Position numbers and translations under genes: made by a program. Shown here piece after piece: positions 32,037-51,391 of a stretch of DNA of 64,000 nucleotides. This DNA is from Lingula anatina. Its lineage: Eukaryota; Animalia; Brachiopoda. Below the pieces are notes generated by a model. It saw nothing but the letters and a program-made list of their open reading frames with translations. It did no database searches and had not been told where the DNA came from. Where the stretch lies: NCBI GenBank assembly GCA_051362555.1, contig CM120642.1, positions 28,582,001 through 28,646,000 of the forward strand, in the 5' to 3' direction. Within the stretch, counting starts at the first letter, position 1; each line of letters begins with the position of its first letter.

Positions 32037-33559
32037 AACATGTATATGTATATATATATATATGTCTACACATCAAATATTTCTTGATGGTTACTTACAA
32101 TTGGATCTTTTTCATTAATTTTTTTAATTTAGATACATGAAAATGGACCATGTGATTTTTGTAATGCCCTCTTTTACATAATCTTTGCAAAATCAACAGC
32201 TATTATCTCTCTGAACATCAGTTTAATAAGGAGTTGTTGAGTGAATCATAGTTAAAGAGGGTGTAATTAATACAGTCATATAACTCTTAATTGAGGAACC
32301 AGGTCATACAGGATTTTTATAGTACTTAAACAGAATGATTTATTTTTATAAACGTGCATATGAACAGAGTGTTAAATGACATGGACCAACCCAGAAGATA
32401 AAGCTTGATTTATTTTCATGTCTGCTGCTTGCGCATTGGAATGCATCTTGTTTTATACAGACACAAATCCCAAACAGGCACATGCAGAATTAAACGTGTA
32501 AAATTTGCAGTCCCAAGTGAGAAGAATTCTCCAACATATGGATGGAGGGATTACGTGGTGTAAAAACTACATGTCAAAGAAAGCTTAACAGAAAATAACT
32601 CAAGATTTTGTGCTTCAAAATTGGTGAGAAATTGATGGTAAAGAATAAAGCATGCTTCTTATCATGGCTTACATAGAGCATTAATAATTAATTTTTATGT
32701 ACAGACACAGATGTGTCTGTACATATAGCCGTCACCTGCATCTGTCGCCATCGTAGCCATCGCCGTGCACTCAGCGATAACACGATAAGTGGAATACCGT
32801 TTTACATTTTGTATTCCAATTTACAGAACTGATGAATATTCATAATTTTTAGGGAAGTTATGCTGTTTTTTCACTTTTTTTAGCATTATTATAACACCGA
32901 TAACACGATAAGTGAAAAACCTTTTTACTTTTTGGCTTGAAACTTATAAAACTGATGAATATTCATAATATGCAGGTCAAGTTCGAAAATCAGAGCTATC
33001 GGGTCAATTTTATGGAAGTTCTGCTGTTTTTTCACTTTTTTCAGCATATATGCAACACCGATAACACAATAAGTGAAAAACCGTTTTACCTTTTGGCTTG
33101 AAACTTACAGAATTGATGAATATTTTTAATACGCAGGTCAAGTTCGAAGATCAGCATGATCGGGCCATTTTAAGGGAAGTTATGCTGTTTTTTCACTTTT
33201 TTCAGCATATATGCAGCACTGATAACACAATATAAGAAAAACAGATGGGCAAATTGTCATTATACTCACAGGAGTGGTCAATCTTACTAAAACGTAGGAT
33301 GAGTTGGAAAATCAGCATAATCGGGCCATTATTTTAGAAGTTATGCTGTTTTTCACATTTCCTCAGATTCAATTCTTAGGCATGTTAACAGTCTCATTAT
33401 TGAACTAATAAGATATGTAAAAGTGTTTGTTTGACATTTCCTGCATCTTTATAACATTGTAAGTTGATTATGTAAAAATGATGGTAAACTTGTTATTGTG
33501 TATTATTCAAATTACTGTTTTTCTTTTTATCAAGAGCTTGTAAAATATGTGGGTATTAC

Positions 33560-33654: not shown

Positions 33655-34236
33655 TCACTGGCCTTGTGTTGTAACTGTTCCTTGCTCCCCCCGGGGCTCC
33701 TCTGCATCCCTCTGGAGCACCGTGAGGTAGATAGCTGGTAAATCATACCCCCCCTGTCTGTTCAGGTCTGGTTGTTTGGTCCTGATGTGTACAGCTTCTG
33801 CTATTTTTCTTTGGAATGTCCAGTTTTCCCTGTCTATCACTTTCAGGCTGTCAAAGTCTATGTGGTGACCTGGATGTTTGCAGGTATGTTCTCCAAGGGC
33901 TGATTTCCAGTTGTTTTTGGCCACTGAGTCTTTGTGTTCTTTCATTCTTGTGGCTAATGGTCTTCCTGTCTCGCCAATGTATTCTCCATGGCAGGTTCCA
34001 CATTTGACTGAATATATACACCACATTGCTCTCCTTGGGTTAGAGGATCCTTGGGCTTCACTAGTGCTTGTCTCAGCGTCCAACCTGGCTTATGGTGGAG
34101 TTTGATGTTATATTTTTTATAAACCCGGCTTAGTTTTTCTGACAGACCTTGGCAGTATGGTAACACTATACTTTGCTTTGCACCCTCAATGAGGCCCATT
34201 GCATCCTTTTCTTTGTCATGTCTGTTCTTGCCTCTT
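33655..34236 (-). mobile_element. Penelope-like retroelement 3' fragment (linker + GIY-YIG endonuclease), frameshifted
   Basis: IVLPYCQGLSEKLSRVYKKYNIKLHHKP...KDP...GV, then a frameshift (~34015) to IYSVKCGTCHGEYIGETGRPLATRMKEH...SALGEH...RKIAEAVHI...LNRQGG. Confidence 0.9.
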
Positions 34237-34794
34237 TTTATGACTGTCAAACTTTCAAAAAAGAAAGACAGGACTAAAATGCAGCCTGAGTTGGAAAAGC
34301 AGTCTAATTGGCTTCTTTTTCTGGAAGTTATACATTTTCAAAGTGTGAACTTGTTACACATTTTACTTACATTGGTATTACCTGTTGAGCATAATTAAAT
34401 TTGATGTTGAATTTGCAGTTTAACATAATGTACTTTTGCATCAGAATTGACAGTAGCCTATTTTGTGCATAGTTATTTCCTGTTTTTTGTCTGTACGTTT
34501 GACAGCTTTGCTGCCTTGTTCAAATATTGAGACTTTCATCATGTGAATTTGAACTCTCATGGTCCTGAAACTGTAACTGAATCTTATTGAAGGGGTGGGT
34601 TGAGACCATCTTCTGGGTCTTCCGGAAGACGGTCAGGTTATTAAGTTTATATTGACTGTTATCTATTTTTTTCTGTTGGAAGACCATAAAAATGGGAGAT
34701 GGATCAACATAGATACTTTGGAATACTGTCAGAAAATATCTCTGGGTCGACTCCTGTTATTGACCATGTTACCTGTTGTGCATGATTAAAATTC

Positions 34795-36609: not shown

Positions 36610-38396
36610 ATGTACAGATACAGATGTGTCTGTACATATTGCCATCACCTGCGTCTGTCGTCGCCGATGCCGATGCCGGCGCCATGCACTTTCCTTGTAA
36701 ACACGATAAGTGGAGGGCAGTTTTACTTTTTGGCTTTATATTTACAGAGCTGATGAATATTCATAAAACGCAGGTCAAGTTTGAAAATCAGCATGATCGG
36801 GCCATTATTGTAGAAGTTATGCTGTTTTTTTCACTTTTCAGCATATATGCAACCCTGTAAACACATTTTAAGGAAAACCATTAGGCCTGTTGTCATGAAA
36901 CTCACAGGAGTAATCAATCTTACTAAAACGCAGGTCAAGTTCGAAAATCGGCATGATTGGGCCACTATTTTAGTAGTTATGCTGTTTTTTCAATTATCAG
37001 CATATATGCAACACTGTAAACACAATAGAAGAAAAACAGATGGGCCAATTGTCATTAAAACTCACAGGAGTGGTCAATCTTACTAAAACGCAGGTTGAGT
37101 TCGAAAATCAGCATAATCGGGGCATTATTTTAGAAGTTATGCTGTTTTTTCACATTTTCTCAAATTCAACTCTTAGGCATATTAACAGTCTCATTATTGA
37201 ACTAATAAGATACGTAAAAGTGTTTGTTTGACATTTCCTGCATCTTTACAACATTGTTAGTTGATTATGGAAAAATGATGGTAAACTTGTTATCGTGTAT
37301 TGTGTAATAAAGTTTTAAAAATTTAAATAAACTCATATCATTGCAGTTTGTCAGATTCAATCATTCACTATGTTCAGAATCTCAGAATGGAAGAAATTGG
37401 ACATTTAACACTGTTCTATTGATATTTTTCCCATCTCATCAATTTTCTTAGTTGATCATATAAAAATTGCAGTAAACTGTTAATTTTGTTTTATGTTTAA
37501 AAAATTGTTAAAAATGGAGAAAAAAAACATTTCAGAACAGTGCTGTCTTGTTTAAATTTTGGCATTTTCAAGTTGTGACATTGAAGTTCCATGGGCCTGA
37601 AGACCTTTGCTAGTCACATTTTCTGAATATCCATAATACTTATATTTTATTATGAAAATTGATGGTCATTATGCTGTTAAACATTATGTAATATTGCATC
37701 AAAATTTGAAAAAAACCTATTTTGGGCACTGCTCCCATGATGACCATTTAAGAAAAACCATGTCACTTACTGTTCTCAAACTTACAGGAAAGAAACATGG
37801 GACTAAAATACAGCTTCAGTAGGCAATGCAGTCTGTTTGGTAATTCTTAATGCCAGTTAAACAGTTTTTTTTTTTTGTGAAAATTTAATTTTTCACATAT
37901 TGGCATTTTCAAGGTGTGACTTTGAAGTTCCATGGGCTTGAAGACCCATGCTAGTCACATTTTCTGAAAATCCATGATATGTATATTTTATTATTAAAAA
38001 TTGACGGTCCTTATGCTGTTAACCATTATGTAATATGGCATCAGAATAGAAGAAAACACAATTTTGGGTGCTGCTGCCATGATGACCATTATGGGAAAAC
38101 CATGTTACTTATGATTGCCAAACTTTCAAAAAAGAAATACAGGACAGTCTAAAATGCAGCCTGAGTTGGAAAAGCAGTCTAATTGGCTTCTTTTTCTGGA
38201 AGTTATACATTTTCAAAGTGTGAACTTGTTACACATTTTACTTACATTGGTATTACCTGTTGAGTATATTTAAAATTTGATGTTGAATTTGCAGTTTAAC
38301 ATAATGTACTTTTGCATCAGAATTGACAGTAGCCTATTTTGTGCATAGTTATTTCCTGTTTTTTGTCTGTACATTTGACAGCTTTGCTGCCTTGTT
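36610..38396 (+). mobile_element. Non-autonomous Helentron/Helitron2-type element (HINE), copy B, apparently complete
   Basis: Same 5' hairpin (ATGTACAGATACAGATGTGTCTGTACAT), ~159-bp core repeats, a second ~341-bp internal repeat (37559/37900), and 3' GTCTGTACATTT-GACAGCTTTGCTGCC-TTGTT. Confidence 0.8.
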
Positions 38397-38437: not shown

Positions 38438-38869
38438 AGTATCAGAGTTGAACTTCAGTATCAGTGGAAGAATGAGGGATCAGCAATAACCAACAACAAG
38501 ATTTTCTGTTGCCACTGACTTTATTCTATCTCTCTCCCTGTCCCTCTGTCCCTCTGTGAGGATGCAGGGGATTATATACACAAATATCAAAGACATTCCT
38601 ATGATCAAAGAGATACATTTAAGATAACTGTAAGGGCGACAACATGTCCCTTCAACTTGTGCCCAGCCAGTGTTACGGACCTGTATTTCAAGTTAAATGC
38701 TAAATATTTGTCATGGCAGGTCATTTCTGACCCTGCCCTGTAATTATCAAAATGATGCTGGAGATGTGTGTGGTAGGTCATCTCTGACTCTGTGTGCCAC
38801 GGCAGGTCATTTCTGACCCTGCCCTGTAATTACCAAAATTCACCAAAAATCACTAAATTTAACATGAAA
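38438..38869 (-). repeat. 3' LTR
   Basis: No differences from 47832-48263 seen by eye. Minus-strand TATA-like box at 38572-38578 and AATAAA at 38520-38525. Confidence 0.95.
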
Positions 38870-38871
38870 CA

Positions 38872-38883
38872 TCTTCCTGGCCC
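38872..38883 (-). promoter_or_regulatory. Polypurine tract candidate
   Basis: GGGCCAGGAAGA on the minus strand, immediately before TGTTTCATG at the start of the 3' LTR. Confidence 0.55.
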
Positions 38884-39287
38884 AATAAAATTTGTGCCTC
38901 AAATTTTGTTCACAATGTAATGACAAACAGAAATATTGTCTTATAATAGGACTACCATAATCGTAAGATAAACATGAGTGCAAGCTATTATGCTGGCAAT
39001 TATTATAGCCATAAGCAACAAAGTTTAACATTAGCATGCCTTTTCATAGTAATAATGATAATAATGCTGAAGTCTCCCTATAATAGTCTATGTCTACAAA
39101 TAATTAATGCTATTGAGCATAAAAAGATATTCTTTTAACTACCAGTAAATATGGTACATCTCTTAATTCACTGTAACAATCAAATTTGATTGCCTTAACA
39201 TTACACAGACAGATACAGTATATAATATATAATCCTGTGTTTACACATTTAAGAGATACATGTGTAGCATTGCTTGACAACCTAAAG

Positions 39288-39788
39288 TTATCATTATCCA
39301 TTACATTATCAATACCCTCCACCATCAAATCAACAATTGTTTTGTTTCATATTTGTCAATTAATTATTATAACTTTTTCTATGTGGTTACATAATTTCCA
39401 GAATCAATTCTGATTTTCTCATTAATATCATATTGAAAGTCATTATTTTATTATATCATGATGGAACATTAATATAATTCATGTATACTGTCAGTACACT
39501 CAAATATACATCTTAGAGTTACATGTACATGTATAGTTATATTTCACATCATAAATGTTATCATAATCCATTATATTATCAATACCCTCCACCATCAAAT
39601 CAAAGATTTTTGCTAAATATTGGTCATTGCTACATCAATTAATTATCATAACTTTTTCAATGTGGTTACATAATTTCGATAATCAATACTGATCGTCTCA
39701 TTAATATCAAATTAAAAATTATTTTCTTATATTATGATAGCTCATTAATATAATTCATGTATACTGTCAGTACACGCTCAAGTATACA
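39288..39788. repeat. Diverged ~230-bp direct repeat (2 copies, ~270-bp period) in the element's 3' UTR
   Basis: ATTATCAATACCCTCCACCATCAAATCAA...ATGTGGTTACATAATTTC...CATTAATATAATTCATGTATACTGTCAGTACAC occurs at 39288-39510 and 39558-39788. Confidence 0.85.
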
Positions 39789-39893
39789 ACACAAATCACT
39801 GTGGATCACACATAATCACACTCACACTCCGTAGAAGTGGACTGTTCATTAAATTGTTTTACCCTTTATAGCGTAATAAGGTCAAATTGGTAT

Positions 39894-42232
39894 TCACAGG
39901 AGGTACATTAAACGTTCATGATGCAACACTACAAGATGCGCATCAAATGGCTGATCAATTATTGACATGATAGAAAAATATTGCCACCAGGACAAGGGGA
40001 CACTGGTAGGCAATGGAATGAAGTGGTTCACCTGTCCTTGAGTCACTTTTATTGTTACATCTCCCCATTCAAGCACTAAATTTGGTCTTAATCCCTTTAT
40101 TACTATCAGGTTAGCAATAATTTGATTTCCCATTGCTTTGATATCAAATGGACACTGTTTAAGATGACATAGGTGTATCAACATGCTCTTTTCAGCATTG
40201 TTTATTTCTAGTGCTAGGCCATTTTGCTGGTGCCTACCTTTACACAAAATAATTACTCCCAGAATGATAAAAAGAAGAAGTATTGCTGAAAAGTAAACTG
40301 CAGGAGCAATTTCATGCGTTAAAATTTTATAGATGTCGAATTCAATTTTGGGTGACGGAGATGGTGAGCTATATTGGTAGATAAAATTGGGAGCAGTGTT
40401 TGCCTTGGCATGGGCCATAGTTAACATTGCAGTGCTTAAAACTTTGATTTTATAAGTAAGTGTGGCTGACAGAGCAATTGCTAGGATTGCAACACCCAAA
40501 GCTACATACCCAATTATATCATCCAGAGACAGTCCTCCTGTGGGTAATGTTAAGTCACCAGACAAGAGGGGCTCAGTCAGCGACTGAAATATAGTCTCTC
40601 CCTTTTTTGCTGCTGACATTACTTTTCGCAGATTGAGTTTAATGGAGGAATCCTTGGTTAAAAATTGTGAAAAGTTATGATTGTATAGGCGTAACGTGGG
40701 GATTGTTACTCTGGGGGGTGTTTGAAAGACGGAATGACCAAAAATATCAGAAAAGTTACCTTCATCAAAAAGTTGCTGTAAAAGTGCTAAATTTATGGGA
40801 TGAAGAATTTCAGTAGTTTCATTATGTTCACAAATTCGACGGGGAGGAATATATGTGGAGTCCCCTTCTATAGAGCAGGAACATGGCACCTTCAAAACAC
40901 AAAAATCACAACCAACTTTGGTTACATTGGATGAACACCGCATTGTCAAATTTTGAATTCTGTTAACCAGAACTTGATCTTTCCCAACTGGCGTTAAGGT
41001 GGAGGAGATGCTATTGGGTAGGAGTTGGAAATCGCAGAGGTCTTTGATGCTGGTTTTATCATTTAGTAGAAGGGCCTTTAAGCAATGAGGTTTCTTGGAT
41101 ACCTTAGTATTTTCCAGTGCACAAAACATGGGGTTTTGTCCAGTGCAAGATTTCAGAAAATCATAGTTCAGGCTAATGTGGTGGTTCCCAAAACTGGCAA
41201 AGTATTCAGGAACATTGTGGAGGAGGGTGGCATGTTTACTTGTCGCATTGAGGGGAACTGGTACTGCTTTAACATGAAACACTGTAAATAAATCGTGGGA
41301 TGCTATGGGAATTTTGATGGTGATTGCTATTGACTGATTTAAGTTATGTGTGGCAATTTTGCCATAACGGTAGTAATACTGCAAATTTTGGTTGATAAGT
41401 AGTCCTGGAAATTGTTTTTGAAGAGAAGCCTTAATTTTCTTTAAAGTGCTGCTTAGCATATGAGGGGGAAATAGAATTGGTGAAAGCTTTCCATGGGAGA
41501 CATCATTCATACCTATCATTGTATTTTCGATTTCAAAGGTGAGCTTGTTAGTTATGGTACTTACATGCATTAACTTTGTAAATAACCCAAGTGTAAAATC
41601 TATTTCATTCTCAATATACTTTAAATCACCTCCTAACATTATGTTTAACTGGTGATTGTCTTCTATCTGTTTAACCATGTTCATCATGCGTTCATTTTGC
41701 CCACTTACAATTGACCCATATTGAGAACTAAATTTGGAAAAGGATGTCAGGGCTTTTTGCTGCCTTGATTGCAATGCATTGATGTGATCAATCACCTTAT
41801 TAAGTTGGTCTTCCGTTGCCACTCCAAAGAGACTATTCGCCACCTTACCTACAAATGGAAGTGCTGATCTTTTTTGTCTATTTTCCTCAACATCATCATT
41901 GGTAAATATTTCACTTACTCTATGCCGAAGTGCTCTCAATTCACTTCTTGTTTGACTATACAACTTTCTACCTTCATCTACTGCTCTTTCGATTAATTTA
42001 CATGTTTTCTTATTTAAACGCCCATCGCAATTATACTCTAAGTTAGGCTCCATCGGAACTTCTGGCAAGTACACAAACATCGTGTGTAGCCAATAGTCGT
42101 TTACCACTGCCATCGTCCCTTCATTTCTAAAGAAAACACCGTAGTTTATCCGATTTTCAGCACTGGTAAGGGGCAGAATTGCCACAGCCATCCAGATGAC
42201 AAGCCATAGACTTATGCAATCGTATTGGGGTC
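39894..42232 (-). CDS. env: Envelope fusion glycoprotein (baculovirus-F/errantivirus class I type), probably from a spliced mRNA
   Basis: 765-aa ORF from Met 42191; the frame stays open back to a splice acceptor at 42232. Hydrophobic signal CISLWLVIWMAVAILPLTSA, furin site RQKR followed by fusion peptide SALPFVGKVANSLFGVATEDQL, heptad repeat, Cys-rich region, N-glycosylation sequons, two TM segments. Confidence 0.9.
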
Positions 42233-42445
42233 CTGAGGAGAAAAATGAGATTTTAAGAAGTGGCCTTTACCTATCTTACTTATAGAACCGGCTACAAGAA
42301 GATTGCGCATTAGGTACAAAACCAAAGATCAGAAAGGAGTAGGAGAACAGGACTGTACAATAAAAAGGCATAAGGACTAAGCGCTAGACATTTTAGAAAG
42401 ACTGCCAATTCTATACTGAGGAGTTGCATTACATCTGATCACAAT

Positions 42446-45400
42446 CTATTGACGAGTCACCAGTTTACGCTTTTTCTTCTTTCCTTTCTTCGTCTTATTA
42501 GCGTGGAATTCCTGAATTAGCAAATCTGGCACTTTATCAGCCCTAACCCAAGTCGATGTTTTTATACCTTTCCACTTTATTCTATATAGCTTTTCTCCTT
42601 TGTACCATTCATAACATAATATTTTCTCTACCTCTTTTTCCTGTGGGTTATCTATCTCAACTTCACATGGGACAGGAGTGTCAGGTACATTAGCATCAAA
42701 TTGTGCTTCTGGTTGGATATTTTCAGTATCATTGATCGGACCATTAACTGGAACATTTTGTGGAGTGATGTCATCAAACTTTGTTCTGATAATGGGGTCT
42801 TTGTATGGTTTAAGTCTATTGGCATTAACAGGGGCCTTCACAAGTTTGTTGGTGATACACTCTCTCAATTGGTATGTGGCATTGCCAAGCACTCTCACTA
42901 TATAGAAAGGCCCTATAAATTTTGGAACGAGTTTGGATGTCAAACCTTTTGGGGTTCTTTCATTTCTTAATAAAACTTTGTCCATTTCGGCATATTTTGG
43001 ATTTGTAGCATTTCGGTTATGATATTTGGCATTTTGCCACTGAGATTCCAGTTTTATTTTTGCTGCCACCTGTCTACCCTTGTTTAGAGAATCTAATCTG
43101 TCTGATACATATTTTGCCACATTATGGGGTAGGTCCCTCTTGGGTAGTAATTCAACATCTAAAGGTGTGGTCATTTCCTTTCCAAAAAGAATGAAAAATG
43201 GACTATAACCCGTCCCTTCTGTGGGAGAACTTCTATAGGCCATTAACACTGATTCTAAATGATCTGCCCAATCTGACTGATCTTCTCGACATAGGGCACG
43301 CAGTGATTGCCATATAAAACTGTTGAACCGTTCACACGTGGCATTTGTTTGGGGATGATACGATGCTGTGTAGTGTCTTTCTACATCAAAAATGTCACAA
43401 ATGGCTTGTACTAACTTTGATCTAAAATTTTGGCCTCTGTCTGTAATAATTTCAGAAGGCGCACCAAATCTTGTAAAAATATGTTTGTATAAGACATTTG
43501 CTATTTCAGTAGCCTCTTGTGATTTAAGGGCAAATGCCTCTGGCCAACGTGAAAAAGATTCGACAGCTAGCAAGATATACTTGTGTCCGGACTTTGTTGG
43601 TGTGATTGGACCTAGTATATCCAAATGCCATGTGCTGAAAACATCTTTTATGGGAAGGGGCTGTAGTAACGACTTTGTATTGTGATAACCTCTTTTGACC
43701 TTCTGACAAACACTGCAGGACTTGACATAACGTTTAATGTCCCTTGACATTTTTGGCCAGTAATATTTTAACCTGATTTTTTCTAGGCATCTCCTAAAAC
43801 CTGGATGGCAAGCGCCTGCTCTGGCATCATGGTACGCTTTCAATACCTTAGCCCTGTATTGTTTTGGCACTGCTAACTGCTCTATCAAGTTTTCATCACC
43901 TGCCTTTTGTTTTCTTCTATTTATGTGTTGCCTATACAGGATACCGTTCCTAATCAGGAAAAATTGTTTCAGGTTCTTCTTTTCTGATTGTACACTAGTA
44001 GGACTTTGGAGGAGTCTGATGATTGGAGCTAGGTCAGGGGAAGCGCTTTGATTTTGAGCCAAGTCAGTTAGTTCTACCTTATCTGGCCATTTTGTTAGTG
44101 GTGTTTTATTGACACTTGCAACTACTACTGGAGGATTTGGTCTGCAGTAATTGAATTTGATGGTATGAAGTTTCTTGTCAATTTTTGATGGGGGTGTCAG
44201 GGTATACGTGCCCTTAGCATCATCTATCATGTTGACTTTAGGTTGTGTTAGAGCTATGTCATCGTCTGCTTCATCAGTTTGTCTTGATAAACAGTCTACG
44301 GGGTTCGTGCTACCTTTCTTGTAATAAATTGAAAACTGTAAGTCTTGAATTTCAAGTGCCCACCTATTCAATTTCTGGTTTCCACTTTGTTTTGATTGCA
44401 ACCACTCCAGAGGTTTATGGTCAGTAAAGATTGAGAAATGATTGGGTTGAAGGTAAACTCGGTATTCCTTAATTCCCTCAATTAAAGCCAAACATTCTTT
44501 TTCTGTAACATTGTAATTTCTTTCTGCAGGACGCAGTGTTCTAGAACCATAAGAGATAGCATGTTCCCTTCCATCTTTGTCAACTTGACTAAGCATATAA
44601 CCTATCGCAAAGTCTGAGGCATCAGTCGTTAGTTTGAATTCTCTGTTCATGTCGGGGAATGCCAAGATAGGGGCTGTCGCTAAGGTGTTTTTTAGCTTGT
44701 CAAATGACTGTTGGCACGTGTCTGTCCAACTAAATGGTTTATCCTTTCGTGTTAATGCATTCAAGGGGGCTGCAATTTTAGCATAATTTTTGACAAAACG
44801 ACGATAGTAATTACACATACCCAAAAAGCTTTTCACTTGTGTGCGAGTTTTCGGTCTCAAAACTTTTTTGACTGCCTCTACTTTTGACATATCTACTGAA
44901 ATGCCATCTTTTGAGATGAAATGACCTAAAAAGGCTATTCGTTTAGTAGCAAATTTGCATTTTTTTGTTTTCACTTTGAGATTGGTTTCTTGTAACCGTT
45001 TGAAAACTAATTCCAAATGTTGGAGATGTTCCTCAAAATTTTTTGAAAAGATCAAAATGTCATCAATGTAACACAACACCATTTTCCAATTTAAATCTTT
45101 TAGCACACGGGCCATTGTGTTTTGGTAGTGCGCCGACGCGTTACGAAGGCCAAACGCAAGTCTTTTAAACTGAAAATGACCATGGTGGGTCACAAAAGCT
45201 GTTTTATGTCTGGTAGTCTCTTCTAAGGGAAGTTGCCAAAAGCCCGAGAATAAATCTAAAGAACTGTACACCCTGGCATTAGAGTCAGCAAGTATGTCGA
45301 GTACGTCAGTCAGTCGAGGCAAGGGAAAGTGGATGGGCGTGGTCACTTTATTTAAACGTCTATAGTCTATAGCAAAACGCATAGATCCGTCTTTTTTGCG

Positions 45401-46534
45401 AACCAAAACCACTGGGCTTGCCCACTCACTATTTGACTCCTCAATGATATCATTTCTAAGCATCTCATCTGTTTGTCTTTCTATCTCAGTCTTTTGGTCA
45501 GTTGTCTGTCTATAATGTCTTTGTCTTTGGGGCGGGGCGTTACCTGTCTCTATCACATGTCCTTTCACTTTTGCCTCTCCCATTTCTGATAAATCTGATG
45601 CAAATATATCCCTGTATTTCCCTATTAATATTAATAGTTCACCTTTCTGTTCTTCTGTCAGGTCAGTTTCATCTAAAGATAAGCCCGTTTCTTTAGCTAA
45701 CTTCAGGAAATGTGAGTTATCTATGGACTCTGCCTCTGTTGTCCCAATAAAGTGTTCCCGTTTTAAGCATGAGCTAATGTTAGCTGGACCCTCCTCACCC
45801 ATGGGTAGAATACAGTTTGTCTCTACAGGGTATGCTTTGGCCAAGACAGTGTCATTTGGAATGGTTATTGATTTGTCAGTGGGATTGTATATTCTGCACA
45901 TGCTCCGATTCTTATCTATAACACACCTAGCCACCAAATAGTGGTTATCGACAGGATCTAACAGTAGACTTTTAGCATTGGTCTTATTTGCTCCAGATAT
46001 TTTTACAGGTATTAAGCTTTCAGTTCTGGGACCAACAGTTATTTTGTGATTGGTACGCACCAGGCCTACATAATTTGGTTTATTTGTGTGACAGAACTTC
46101 TTATCATTAAATGACAGGATGCTATTTTTCATGTCAAAGGTAGCTCCATTTGTCTTTAGGAAATCAATGCCCAAAATAACATTTCTTGGAAGGTTTTGCA
46201 AAATGTAAAATTTATGAGTGAAGGAGTTTTTGCCTATGACAAAGTCAATTAAAGCACAACCAATAATTTTATGGGATTCTCCGCCTACTCCTGAGATTGT
46301 TAACAGGTCTGATTTTAAAAACTTAACTGTTGATTGCTTTTCATGTTTTAGTTCTCTCATGATGTTATCCGAAATGCAAGATATTGATGCACCTGTGTCA
46401 ATCATGGCCTTAACTGTCAGGGTATTAAAATGGATTTTAATCAAATTGTGTTCTATAGGGTCCCCTCCCATGACATTCCCTAGAAAACAACTCTCCTGTA
46501 AATTTTTCAATTTTTCCTTATTACGCAGACACCC
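42446..46534 (-). CDS. pol: Pol polyprotein: aspartic protease, RT, RNase H, integrase, C-terminal chromodomain
   Basis: MIDTGAS (PR), RFAIDYRRLN and CYIDD (RT), TTDASDFAIG (RNase H), HDARAGACH...CSVCQ (IN zinc finger), WHLDILGP/IITDRG/CERFN (DDE), IGPF, EVEKIL...YRIKWKG...TW (chromo). The frame is open from the codon directly after the gag UAG. Confidence 0.97.
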   Translation of the reverse strand, partial: GCLRNKEKLKNLQESCFLGNVMGGDPIEHNLIKIHFNTLTVKAMIDTGASISCISDNIMRELKHEKQSTVKFLKSDLLTISGVGGESHKIIGCALIDFVIGKNSFTHKFYILQNLPRNVILGIDFLKTNGATFDMKNSILSFNDKKFCHTNKPNYVGLVRTNHKITVGPRTESLIPVKISGANKTNAKSLLLDPVDNHYLVARCVIDKNRSMCRIYNPTDKSITIPNDTVLAKAYPVETNCILPMGEEGPANISSCLKREHFIGTTEAESIDNSHFLKLAKETGLSLDETDLTEEQKGELLILIGKYRDIFASDLSEMGEAKVKGHVIETGNAPPQRQRHYRQTTDQKTEIERQTDEMLRNDIIEESNSEWASPVVLVRKKDGSMRFAIDYRRLNKVTTPIHFPLPRLTDVLDILADSNARVYSSLDLFSGFWQLPLEETTRHKTAFVTHHGHFQFKRLAFGLRNASAHYQNTMARVLKDLNWKMVLCYIDDILIFSKNFEEHLQHLELVFKRLQETNLKVKTKKCKFATKRIAFLGHFISKDGISVDMSKVEAVKKVLRPKTRTQVKSFLGMCNYYRRFVKNYAKIAAPLNALTRKDKPFSWTDTCQQSFDKLKNTLATAPILAFPDMNREFKLTTDASDFAIGYMLSQVDKDGREHAISYGSRTLRPAERNYNVTEKECLALIEGIKEYRVYLQPNHFSIFTDHKPLEWLQSKQSGNQKLNRWALEIQDLQFSIYYKKGSTNPVDCLSRQTDEADDDIALTQPKVNMIDDAKGTYTLTPPSKIDKKLHTIKFNYCRPNPPVVVASVNKTPLTKWPDKVELTDLAQNQSASPDLAPIIRLLQSPTSVQSEKKNLKQFFLIRNGILYRQHINRRKQKAGDENLIEQLAVPKQYRAKVLKAYHDARAGACHPGFRRCLEKIRLKYYWPKMSRDIKRYVKSCSVCQKVKRGYHNTKSLLQPLPIKDVFSTWHLDILGPITPTKSGHKYILLAVESFSRWPEAFALKSQEATEIANVLYKHIFTRFGAPSEIITDRGQNFRSKLVQAICDIFDVERHYTASYHPQTNATCERFNSFIWQSLRALCREDQSDWADHLESVLMAYRSSPTEGTGYSPFFILFGKEMTTPLDVELLPKRDLPHNVAKYVSDRLDSLNKGRQVAAKIKLESQWQNAKYHNRNATNPKYAEMDKVLLRNERTPKGLTSKLVPKFIGPFYIVRVLGNATYQLRECITNKLVKAPVNANRLKPYKDPIIRTKFDDITPQNVPVNGPINDTENIQPEAQFDANVPDTPVPCEVEIDNPQEKEVEKILCYEWYKGEKLYRIKWKGIKTSTWVRADKVPDLLIQEFHANKTKKGKKKKRKLVTRQ

Positions 46535-47719
46535 CTATTGTTTTATGGTTCTGCAAACCACAGCCAAATGACCAATACGCTCACAGTTGTAGCATTTCAT
46601 GTTACGGGCAAAACAATTTAATTCCGTATGAAAAGTCCACTTACCACAACGTGAACACTTCCTCTCCTTTTCCTCTCTTCTCTCCTTCCTCCATTCACCC
46701 CTTCTTTCTGCACTCCTTTCACGCATCCTCTCCTTGCTGCTATCTCTAGATCGATCTGCTGGCTGGAATGATACTTTTCTGTTACTTCTCTCTGTTGAGA
46801 CTACCTGTACACTGGGCCCTTCCAAAACTCTATTTATCAATTGTGTTATTTGGCCCATCATGTTTTCTTGCATTGTGACAAATTTGTTAAGTATTAAATG
46901 ATTGTTGTCATGCTCTTTCAGGTCTGTAGACAGGGGTGCCACGGTAAGATCTGGAGACACATTAGTGGTAGCAGTTTCAGCCAAAATAGCTGCTTCTTCT
47001 AATTGTCTCAAATTTTGAGGGTTCTGCATGGTTACAGCTGCCCTTATTGTAGGTTTAAGGCCATTAATGATGGCTGCCAAAATGTGTTGCTCAGGCAATT
47101 TTACCTGATGTCCCATTTTCATCATTTTAGAAATGAAGTCTCTTACCTTTTCTTCGTCCTGTCTACTGGAAAATATAGATGCAGTCATGGATCTGATTTT
47201 GCTTGGACTAGGTCCATATCTTTCTAAAAATGACATTTTTACTCTTTGATAACTAGTTTTGTTCTGCAAACTTAGGTACCATGTTTTGGCATTTCCTTGT
47301 AATAAATAACTAAAATGCGAAAGTCTCATATTGTCATTGTATTGCATAATATCACAATATTGATCAAATTGATAAACCCAATCTGATGCACAGTCCCCAT
47401 CCTCTCCCCTAAAAGGGAAGGGAGATAGATGTTGTGGCATCGTGATTACCACTGGAATCCCTTGATTTTTCTGAGCTGCCACTGGACTCCCTTGATTTTG
47501 TTGAGCTGCACTGGGGGGCATAGGTGGCGGTGGTGGTGGTGGTGGTGGCATCTCTATCATTGCTTGGGACTGCTCCTGTTGCTGCCCTGGGGATCTTATC
47601 AGAGAGTTGGTCTGCTGGGCTTGTTGTTGTCTCTCAATCTGGTCCAGAGGCTGCAGCTCCTGTTGTTGCTGAGGACCAGGCTCATGTTGCTCTGAGGGTA
47701 CGTTGTGGTTGTTGCCCAT
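46535..47719 (-). CDS. gag: Gag (Q/P-rich N-terminus, capsid, two zinc knuckles)
   Basis: 394-aa ORF: retrotransposon capsid (FRGEDG..DWVYQF...LLQGNAKTWY...RQDEEKVRDF...IINGLKP), CSRCGKWTFHTELNC and CYNCERIGHLAVVC knuckles. Confidence 0.93.
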   Translation of the reverse strand: MGNNHNVPSEQHEPGPQQQQELQPLDQIERQQQAQQTNSLIRSPGQQQEQSQAMIEMPPPPPPPPPMPPSAAQQNQGSPVAAQKNQGIPVVITMPQHLSPFPFRGEDGDCASDWVYQFDQYCDIMQYNDNMRLSHFSYLLQGNAKTWYLSLQNKTSYQRVKMSFLERYGPSPSKIRSMTASIFSSRQDEEKVRDFISKMMKMGHQVKLPEQHILAAIINGLKPTIRAAVTMQNPQNLRQLEEAAILAETATTNVSPDLTVAPLSTDLKEHDNNHLILNKFVTMQENMMGQITQLINRVLEGPSVQVVSTERSNRKVSFQPADRSRDSSKERMRERSAERRGEWRKERREEKERKCSRCGKWTFHTELNCFARNMKCYNCERIGHLAVVCRTIKQ

Positions 47720-47824
47720 CTAATTCAGGGGTATGCTGACTCGAAGCCTGCTGTTCTGTTGCTGCTTGCTGCTGGTTGGAAGTTCTGGGGGATGCCCGTC
47801 TCATTTTTGTTGCCCTTATGGTTA

Positions 47825-47832
47825 CTCCACCA
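47825..47832 (-). promoter_or_regulatory. Primer-binding site (TGGTGGAG, tRNA-Ala-like)
   Basis: Directly abuts the 5' LTR and shares its last T. Complementary to the ...CUCCACCA 3' end of eukaryotic tRNA-Ala, but only 8 nt are recognisable. Confidence 0.6.
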
Positions 47833-48263
47833 GTATCAGAGTTGAACTTCAGTATCAGTGGAAGAATGAGGGATCAGCAATAACCAACAACAAGATTTTC
47901 TGTTGCCACTGACTTTATTCTATCTCTCTCCCTGTCCCTCTGTCCCTCTGTGAGGATGCAGGGGATTATATACACAAATATCAAAGACATTCCTATGATC
48001 AAAGAGATACATTTAAGATAACTGTAAGGGCGACAACATGTCCCTTCAACTTGTGCCCAGCCAGTGTTACGGACCTGTATTTCAAGTTAAATGCTAAATA
48101 TTTGTCATGGCAGGTCATTTCTGACCCTGCCCTGTAATTATCAAAATGATGCTGGAGATGTGTGTGGTAGGTCATCTCTGACTCTGTGTGCCACGGCAGG
48201 TCATTTCTGACCCTGCCCTGTAATTACCAAAATTCACCAAAAATCACTAAATTTAACATGAAA
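47832..48263 (-). repeat. 5' LTR
   Basis: Direct repeat of 38438-38869, followed on the minus strand by PBS and gag. Confidence 0.95.
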
Positions 48264-49650: not shown

Positions 49651-51391
49651 ATGGTTCACAGAAATCTGCTGTATGGCTTGGCTGGTGCACTGGTGCTGAT
49701 GGCGCTCTTGATAATGGTAAGTTCTGGCTGGTGGAATGAGAATCATCCTTTCCTTTTCAGATCACTTTTGATTCTTGTGCAATGTTTGATGATTTTATGG
49801 GTAAGTTTGACTGAAGATGATGTTGAGTTCTTTCGAGATAATACCACACCACATTTTGGCTGTTTATTTGACTGGTGATAAGGTGTTTTTGGTGATGGAT
49901 ATATTGGAAGGTCTTTCATTCAGGTGTTACTTTGCAGGAAGTTAGAAGAAGTCAGATCTGTGTATTGTTACAACAGTTGGCTGTGTGATTTGTATGCAAA
50001 TTTGGGTTGTAGAGGCTTACAAAGTTTCTTATGAATTATGAATTTGATTATAAACTGTATTTGGATCAAGTGGATCTTTTGTTACCTTTAACGATGCACA
50101 GATTAGATAAATTTTAAAATGGAATTATGTTCACATTTTTTATCCTTGAGCTTAAATATTTTATATTTTAAGTGATGGTCACAACATTTCTGGCTTATTT
50201 GAAAGTTTTCTTCTAGTGAACTGAAGATGGGATAGTTGTCACTTAAGTGACATGGTGACGTTTTGAAATGAGCTCAGATATATGTTTGTTTAGAAATCCA
50301 GTAATTTGAAAAAAAGCAGTGATTTTGTACTTTTTCAAAATTGTTCAATTACTAAACATATCATAGTATTCTAAGTGTTCAAAATAGTTGTAATACTCAT
50401 GTTCTTTCAGCTGCCAAAGAAGTTTGAAATGCTGAAGACAAATGGTGAACCAAACCATTTACCAGAACCAGCCAGTAAAAATAACCAGCATCAGACAGAG
50501 GTCTCAAGGGATCATCTGCATTTGGCACCATCTATTGACAACCCCCTGTCTCCTCCTTGTGGGGAAGTCTGTGATTTTTCCATCCACAAAAGCAAAGGAA
50601 TGTCTTTTGTCAAGAAGAATTTTAATTGTCGTAACATATTTCTGAGACTTAAATACCCTCCTGGAAAAGTGTATAAACCACCTCTACGAGAGCCACCTAC
50701 AGAGCTTTTGGATGCGTTCACACAAAATGGAGACATGGCACTGGGATCTTTTTACATGGATGGCACAACGGCTTCTAAGGGCTCCGTGTTCAAGATAGAG
50801 GACATGAACAAATTAATCAAAGACGATAAAGAGCTAAAAATGATTGGAAGTTACGGAAAAGAGAGTGCAAAGTTTAAGAATGGTCTCAGCAAATACAAAT
50901 CTGAACTGACGGGCAAGTCTGGGATAGTGATTGGGAGTATTCGTCCTTGGATAGAAGTAATGCTCATAAACATGGGTGTCAAGCATGTGACAACAGTAGA
51001 TTATAATTCTGTCATATTTGAGCATCCTCAGATATCGTTTAAACTGATGCCAGACTTGGCAGACGAAAGTATAAAAAATCAGCCACCCCAGTTTGATTTT
51101 GCTGCATCATTTTCTTCCTTAGAACACTCAGGACTTGGTCGCTATGGCGACCCTATTAATCCATATGGTGATTTTGAAGCTGCAGCGCAAATATGGTGCA
51201 TGCTTAAGCCTGGTGGGTTATTTTTTCTTGGTGTTCCTGCTTCATTTGGAAAGAGAAAAGGGACGCTGGAGTATAATGCACATCGTATCTACGGTGAAGC
51301 TCGTATCGAGCAACTCACGGCAAACTTTGAGGAAATTTATAGGTTTCATACTGGTATTCACGGTGTATTTGTGTTGAGAAAGCGAGTGTGA
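49651..51391 (+). CDS. DUF268 family protein (class I SAM-methyltransferase-like fold), type II membrane anchor, ~348 aa
   Basis: Exon 49651-49716 (MVHRNLLYGLAGALVLMALLIM|gtaagt) joined in phase 0 to 50411-51391. Motifs VIGSIRPWIE, FDFAASFSSLEHSGLGRYGDPINPYGD, LKPGGLFFLGVP, NAHRIYG. Confidence 0.85.

Follow-up and report, generated by a model that had tools for sequence, protein, structure and literature searches.

How an env-carrying long terminal repeat (LTR) retroelement contacts the cell membrane and buds is the question raised by a 64,000-nucleotide stretch of the Lingula anatina genome (GCA_051362555.1, contig CM120642.1, positions 28,582,001 to 28,646,000; hereafter the window, whose own numbering is used throughout). 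On its minus strand lies an env-carrying Ty3/Gypsy element (errantivirus, Metaviridae). To our knowledge, the Gag of Ty3/Gypsy elements has no matrix domain, which leaves membrane contact and budding of the env-carrying ones an open question. We propose, with a probability of about 0.68, that env of this element is a precursor of two proteins, an F-type fusion protein and a 168-amino-acid (aa) membrane-anchored protein with a predicted matrix fold of the Mononegavirales type, the second likely being released by signal peptidase.

If so, the finding names a candidate budding part that can be tested with one protein. A Mononegavirales-type matrix fold is unexpected in a reverse-transcribing element, this assembly part being known so far from negative-strand RNA viruses. 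It would also provide a second marker of env origin, independent of the fusogen, and a matrix anchored by a transmembrane segment (TM) bears on the origin of the soluble M of Borna, Ebola and measles viruses.

The env frame and its relatives

The env frame is made up of the following segments.

39894..42266, minus strand: env frame, stop to stop, 790 aa, containing all segments below
42159..42218, minus strand: predicted core of the N-terminal signal peptide of Env (hydropathy)
40518..42158, minus strand: F-type fusogen ectodomain (Pfam Baculo_F, 1.3e-9)
40452..40517, minus strand: TM1, fusogen anchor (hydropathy; N outside/C inside by charge bias)
40401..40451, minus strand: internal signal peptide by prediction, with a basic n-region, a hydrophobic core of 8-9 residues and A-x-A at its end
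40311..40400, minus strand: linker rich in T/P/S (family-wide T+P+S about 36%), predicted to form a short ectodomain of the second protein
40242..40310, minus strand: TM2, anchor of the second protein (hydropathy; basic residues behind)
39897..40241, minus strand: 115-aa beta-sandwich domain, predicted to be cytosolic, matching the bornavirus/filovirus/paramyxovirus matrix fold

The first half is an F-type fusogen, with a signal peptide, a furin site (RQKR, 41879-41868) followed by a hydrophobic fusion-peptide-like stretch, and a TM. Hydropathy (KD) above 1.3 gave three peaks along env, corresponding to the N-terminal signal (42218), TM1 (40517, KD 2.27) and TM2 (40298, KD 3.02). A sequence-only reading of this DNA had described Env as a polyprotein ending in a second membrane protein of about 168 aa and 19 kDa. 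All the env segments that it quoted were located in the frame, two TMs rather than one are present beyond the N-terminal signal, and the stretch behind A-K-A (40400-39897) computes to a predicted product of 168 aa and 19.1 kDa.

A C-terminal domain not kept in related elements would have counted against that reading; in the relatives it is conserved. A HMMER search of 1.84 billion representatives returned 2185 matches at E 0.001, and the 150 best of these were aligned with the query (151 sequences; P0151 was misaligned and was dropped from later counts). The last domain is covered by 116 of the 151, in a list that favours carriers because the query itself held the domain. Both TMs reach KD of at least 1.6 in 110 of these 116. 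Among the 142 sequences reaching the end of the ectodomain, 114 carry the last domain. Of the other 28, most break off within, or shortly behind, TM1, the signal-like segment, the linker or TM2; P0102, P0129 and P0151 continue differently after the ectodomain. More than 110 relatives, at 20-30% identity, share the succession of F ectodomain, TM1, the signal-like segment, the T/P/S linker, TM2 and the 115-aa domain; a pearl oyster record is among the matches. Median pairwise identity is 21.8% in the last domain vs 26.8% in the ectodomain. Word-index protein searches recovered only 1, 3 and 4 relatives.

The nearest named proteins to env are two L. anatina gene models, with 98% and 48% identity. 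The element type is already known: ancient errantiviruses with F-type Env were described by Chary and Hayashi (eLife, PMC13524379), and the available part of that study reports the same gag-pol-env order, F-type ectodomain, furin site and fusion peptide, as well as an integrase chromodomain in a cnidarian/mollusc/annelid clade, as found here. The study's analysis of Env is confined to the ectodomain between signal peptide and TM; its main text uses the words matrix, cytoplasmic, tail and budding 0 times each, and it lists Lingula as 'yes - No intact copies'. In the literature covered, which excluded subscription journals, figures, GitHub sequence files and bioRxiv supplements, no matrix domain or second membrane protein was described in Gypsy env or in jingchuviral glycoproteins; the available portions of PMC9210306, PMC11508223, 10.1101/2024.09.25.615016, 10.1101/2024.11.25.625296 and 10.1101/2024.12.15.628590 likewise contain nothing on a second env protein. 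A matrix-fold second protein behind the env fusogen thus appears to be new.

The last domain and the matrix proteins of negative-strand viruses

Structure prediction gives the last domain as a beta-sandwich, with bornavirus M as its nearest counterpart. In two structural models, all sampled branches of the Mononegavirales matrix family head the list of fold matches, and carbovirus M was matched by Foldseek at a probability of 0.94. As in BDV-M, VP40 and paramyxo/pneumovirus M, which are treated in the available part of PMC3887258, the predicted structure is a beta-sandwich, here a single one and nearest to the single-domain BDV-M; the domain is mostly basic, with a net positive charge in 101 of 111 relatives, and late motifs may occur within the same protein, as in VP40. 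Those matrix proteins differ in being soluble and encoded by their own gene, whereas the domain studied here belongs to a reverse-transcribing element, lies in frame with env behind a TM and would be cut from the envelope precursor. We therefore class it as matrix-fold, and not as a standard M protein.

Late motifs were found in many of the relatives. LYPxL and P(T/S)AP motifs recruit ALIX and TSG101, respectively, according to the available part of PMC8402826. A tail of at least 15 aa follows the domain in 87 of 114 family members, and 46 of these tails carry a late motif, compared with 3.6 in shuffles. LYPxL is present in 27 tails (0.06 shuffled) and P(T/S)AP in 16 (0.29 shuffled), the two being often adjacent. 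The combination [TS]AP...YP was seen in 11 of the 87 tails (0.07 shuffled), and in P0030, P0040, P0028, P0068, P0089 and P0134 YP motifs come a few residues after P(S/T)AP. In another set of relatives (P0024, P0027, P0031, P0045, P0051, P0052, P0053 and P0063) a C-x3-C-x2-C type motif, possibly a zinc site, stands directly behind the matrix-fold domain.

The sequence-only reading had guessed at a matrix-like protein, a viroporin or a budding factor. The first guess agrees with the predicted fold and the third with the late motifs of the relatives, whereas a viroporin as the main role was rejected, since the protein has a single TM and no amphipathic or pore evidence was found. The lokiretrovirus gamma protein, offered as a lead, did not materialize, as the available part of PMC7947760 names gag, pol, env and an optional smc, and no such protein.

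At the sequence level, no matrix match was obtained in PDB with either the single sequence or a 24-sequence profile, and Pfam gave no credible match, whether for the 168 C-terminal aa or for 24 sequences of the domain. The copy in the window stops right behind the fold, has no late motif there or in its gag frames, and its last domain has a net charge of -1; either another scission route is needed or this copy is a weakened member. Two further attempts were uninformative: ESM Atlas returned no usable match for the P0004 domain, and a four-copy complex prediction scored 0.00, but it was made without an alignment and with an uncertain fold and so counts neither way.

The domain might also be an unrelated beta-sandwich that only resembles a matrix, in which case the cleaved protein would be a fusogen chaperone, a sorting factor or a host-interaction accessory. 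We consider this unlikely, because the ranking is specific, with the matrix branches on top in both models; the match covers nearly all of the domain and most of BDV-M; predicted M proteins of bornaviruses and nyamiviruses match in a second library, of predicted viral structures (BFVD); and the late motifs of the relatives lie in the same protein. Coronavirus M/ORF3a and rhabdovirus M were absent among the fold matches listed (50 for M/ORF3a), though either may still share the fold. The coronavirus proteins carry their cytosolic fold behind three TMs, whereas here the predicted cut would leave a single TM ahead of the domain. True homology to the Mononegavirales matrix is, in our judgement, quite probable.

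The BFVD search also pointed to chu-like viruses (Jingchuvirales), the matches being mainly Aliusviridae. For the first model, 8 of the top 10 rows (probability 0.84-1.00, TM-score 0.41-0.60, E 0.02-0.2) were proteins of 1041-1235 aa, and seven of these came from named chu-like viruses. For the second, chu-like virus proteins filled the top 8 rows (E 0.003-0.02) and the M of bornaviruses and nyamiviruses came lower, the Foldseek output giving these matches without their position inside the chu-like proteins. The available part of the Viro3D study (PMC12583693) describes the glycoproteins of aliusvirids as class I and, at above 1100 aa, unusually long, and the ICTV (the international body for virus taxonomy) profile of Jingchuvirales names GP, NP, L and unknown open reading frames (ORFs), with no matrix gene (PMC10770922). 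In the available part of PMC11122063, the end of the rice thrips ollusvirus G shows, by eye, a TM, a signal-like segment, a linker, a second TM, a basic cluster and a beta-type domain; the linker has three N-sequons and a T run, and the W-G and L-P spacing of the domain is similar, again by eye. The same module appears to lie at the end of glycoproteins from genomes in which no matrix gene has been named. The chu-like proteins are the leading BFVD matches of both models, but they belong to negative-strand RNA viruses, and the ollusvirus likeness was judged by eye alone.

Matrix and glycoprotein are also neighbours in carboviruses, whose gene order is N-X-P-G-M-L (available part of PMC5834213). 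Such an adjacency therefore exists, M adjoining G as the matrix-fold domain adjoins F in our element; in carboviruses, however, the two are separate ORFs, M has no TM, and bornavirus G is class III and not F-type (available part of PMC2753318).

We see even odds that one transferable fusion-plus-matrix cassette is common to chu-like viruses of the aliusvirus type and a large clade of LTR retroelements in animals, one precursor yielding both the class I fusogen and a matrix of bornavirus type that is anchored in the membrane. These retroelements would then bud like negative-strand viruses, with matrix and ESCRT (endosomal sorting complex) motifs supplied by env in place of Gag; the negative-strand lineage would be either source or recipient of env, and the cassette would supply the missing jingchuviral matrix.

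Among the BFVD matches are also small unnamed ORFs, measuring 134-136 aa in arlivirus/Hubei rhabdo-like virus 3 and 134 aa in Wuhan sharpbelly bornavirus, and the roughly 730-aa glycoproteins of two further chu-like viruses. These may be unannotated matrix proteins or carriers of them.

Predicted membrane topology and probable processing of the precursor

Acidic residues lie ahead of both TM1 and TM2 and basic residues behind them; the net charge becomes more positive from one side of TM1 to the other in 115 of 116 sequences, and likewise for TM2 in 114 of 116. Two helices that both run N-out/C-in need a membrane crossing between them, and we regard the two-TM layout with a cytosolic last domain as nearly certain.

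The crossing may be provided by an internal signal peptide. The stretch between TM1 and A-K-A scores below a full TM by hydropathy. When the family is aligned on the last K/R behind TM1, it shows 8-9 hydrophobic positions, Q-rich polar residues and an A peak at +14 to +17. An uncharged run of at least 8 residues follows TM1 in 109 of 114 sequences, vs 9 of 115 behind TM2, and [AVSTC]-x-A occurs at +14 to +17 in 81 of 114, vs 43.3 ± 4.5 in shuffles. Across the family, n-, h- and c-regions can be made out, positions -3/-1 hold small residues, and the predicted topology downstream is N-out. The linker that follows, with its 36% of T, P and S, would fit a short O-glycosylated ectodomain.

Under the two-protein reading, TM1 would stop the transfer of F, the short signal behind it would re-enter the endoplasmic reticulum, and signal peptidase would cut after A-x-A (40401/40400); TM2 would then hold the second protein in the membrane, its matrix domain facing the cytosol. 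Produced in a 1:1 ratio to F, this protein could line the inner membrane leaflet and gather F trimers together with the Gag capsid that has no matrix domain. In tail-bearing relatives, P(T/S)AP and LYPxL would recruit TSG101 and ALIX, and an enveloped particle would bud.

Structural polyproteins processed by signal peptidase are known from alphaviruses (E2-6K-E1), flaviviruses and hepatitis C virus, and bunyaviruses (Gn-Gc). There too a TM anchor is followed directly by the internal signal of the next membrane protein, but the protein downstream is either a glycoprotein or a viroporin, and the fusogens belong to class II, whereas env here would release a matrix-fold protein.

The internal signal with its A-x-A end, already proposed from the sequence, is therefore favoured by topology and family statistics, but its core is weak in this copy, so that the case is built on the family. 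The h-region is the 6th lowest of 114 (best 8-mer 1.66 vs a median of 2.48). Also unfavourable are the weak positive control of the motif on N-terminal signals (25 of 56 vs 18.5 in shuffles), the higher hydrophobicity of N-terminal signals compared with the internal segment, and the sequon enrichment, which is 0.57x in the linker, 1.33x in the last domain and 1.62x in the ectodomain.

With cleavage a prediction, its motif failing the positive control and the core weak in this copy, Env might instead be an uncleaved three-pass protein, in which the short hydrophobic segment stays in or dips through the membrane and the matrix domain is tethered to F. This seems improbable to us: a core of 8-9 residues with Q/K/P behind it falls short of the usual length of a stable TM, the small residues peak at a fixed distance from TM1, and several fragments have the same A-x-A end.

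A two-TM hairpin with no internal signal, the linker being cytosolic and the last domain an extracellular receptor-binding or shielding module, would agree with the mild sequon enrichment of that domain, the depletion in the linker and two partly conserved cysteines in the domain, but it is very hard to sustain against basic residues behind TM2 in 114 of 116 sequences, ESCRT motifs in the tails that function only in the cytosol, a sequon column that is not conserved (maximum 13 of 114) and a copy that has no sequon.

The element and its surroundings

Between two LTRs, the element contains gag, pol in the order protease, reverse transcriptase (RT), RNase H and integrase, and env, which is the Metaviridae layout.

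47832..48263, minus strand: 5' LTR, sharing an identical run of 432 bp with the 3' copy; ends approximate
46535..47719, minus strand: gag frame, stop to stop, with Q/P-rich N-terminus, capsid and CCHC knuckle
42446..46534, minus strand: pol, with protease, RT, RNase H, integrase and chromodomain
38438..38869, minus strand: 3' LTR, 432-bp run identical to the 5' copy

The gag frame gave no match to matrix families in Pfam. At its 5' end (47700-47800), the first ATG behind the primer-binding region is out of frame with the gag ORF, and the near-identical database gene model P0003 reads through; gag of this copy looks frameshifted near its start.

There is no ATG ahead of the env signal core, and an acceptor-like site ends at 42233, where P0003 enters the env frame, making it likely that env is translated from a spliced mRNA. 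In the 4 of 9 same-species RNA runs covered, the element was nearly silent, env read depth was near zero and no env splice joint was seen. P0003 leaves the frame at a GT after TM2 (40238), which would yield an Env minus the matrix-fold domain; this exit, with zero reads over the site, could reflect either faulty annotation or a genuine isoform.

In one RNA run, six reads connect the left flank (38446) with the right one (48282), consistent with an allele or related repeat that has no insertion. Together with the identical LTRs, they suggest that the insertion is recent. About 1 kb of A/T-rich non-coding DNA with an imperfect internal duplication separates the env stop from the 3' LTR (38870-39893). 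An ORF with Pfam DUF268 (50375-51391, plus strand; 1.9e-38) represents a host gene adjoining the element. On the other side, fragments at 33655-34337 (minus strand), 32847-33329 and 36645-37149 presumably resemble the terminal part of a Penelope-like RT, including a GIY-YIG-type stretch, and they sit among arrays of a 160-161-bp repeat.
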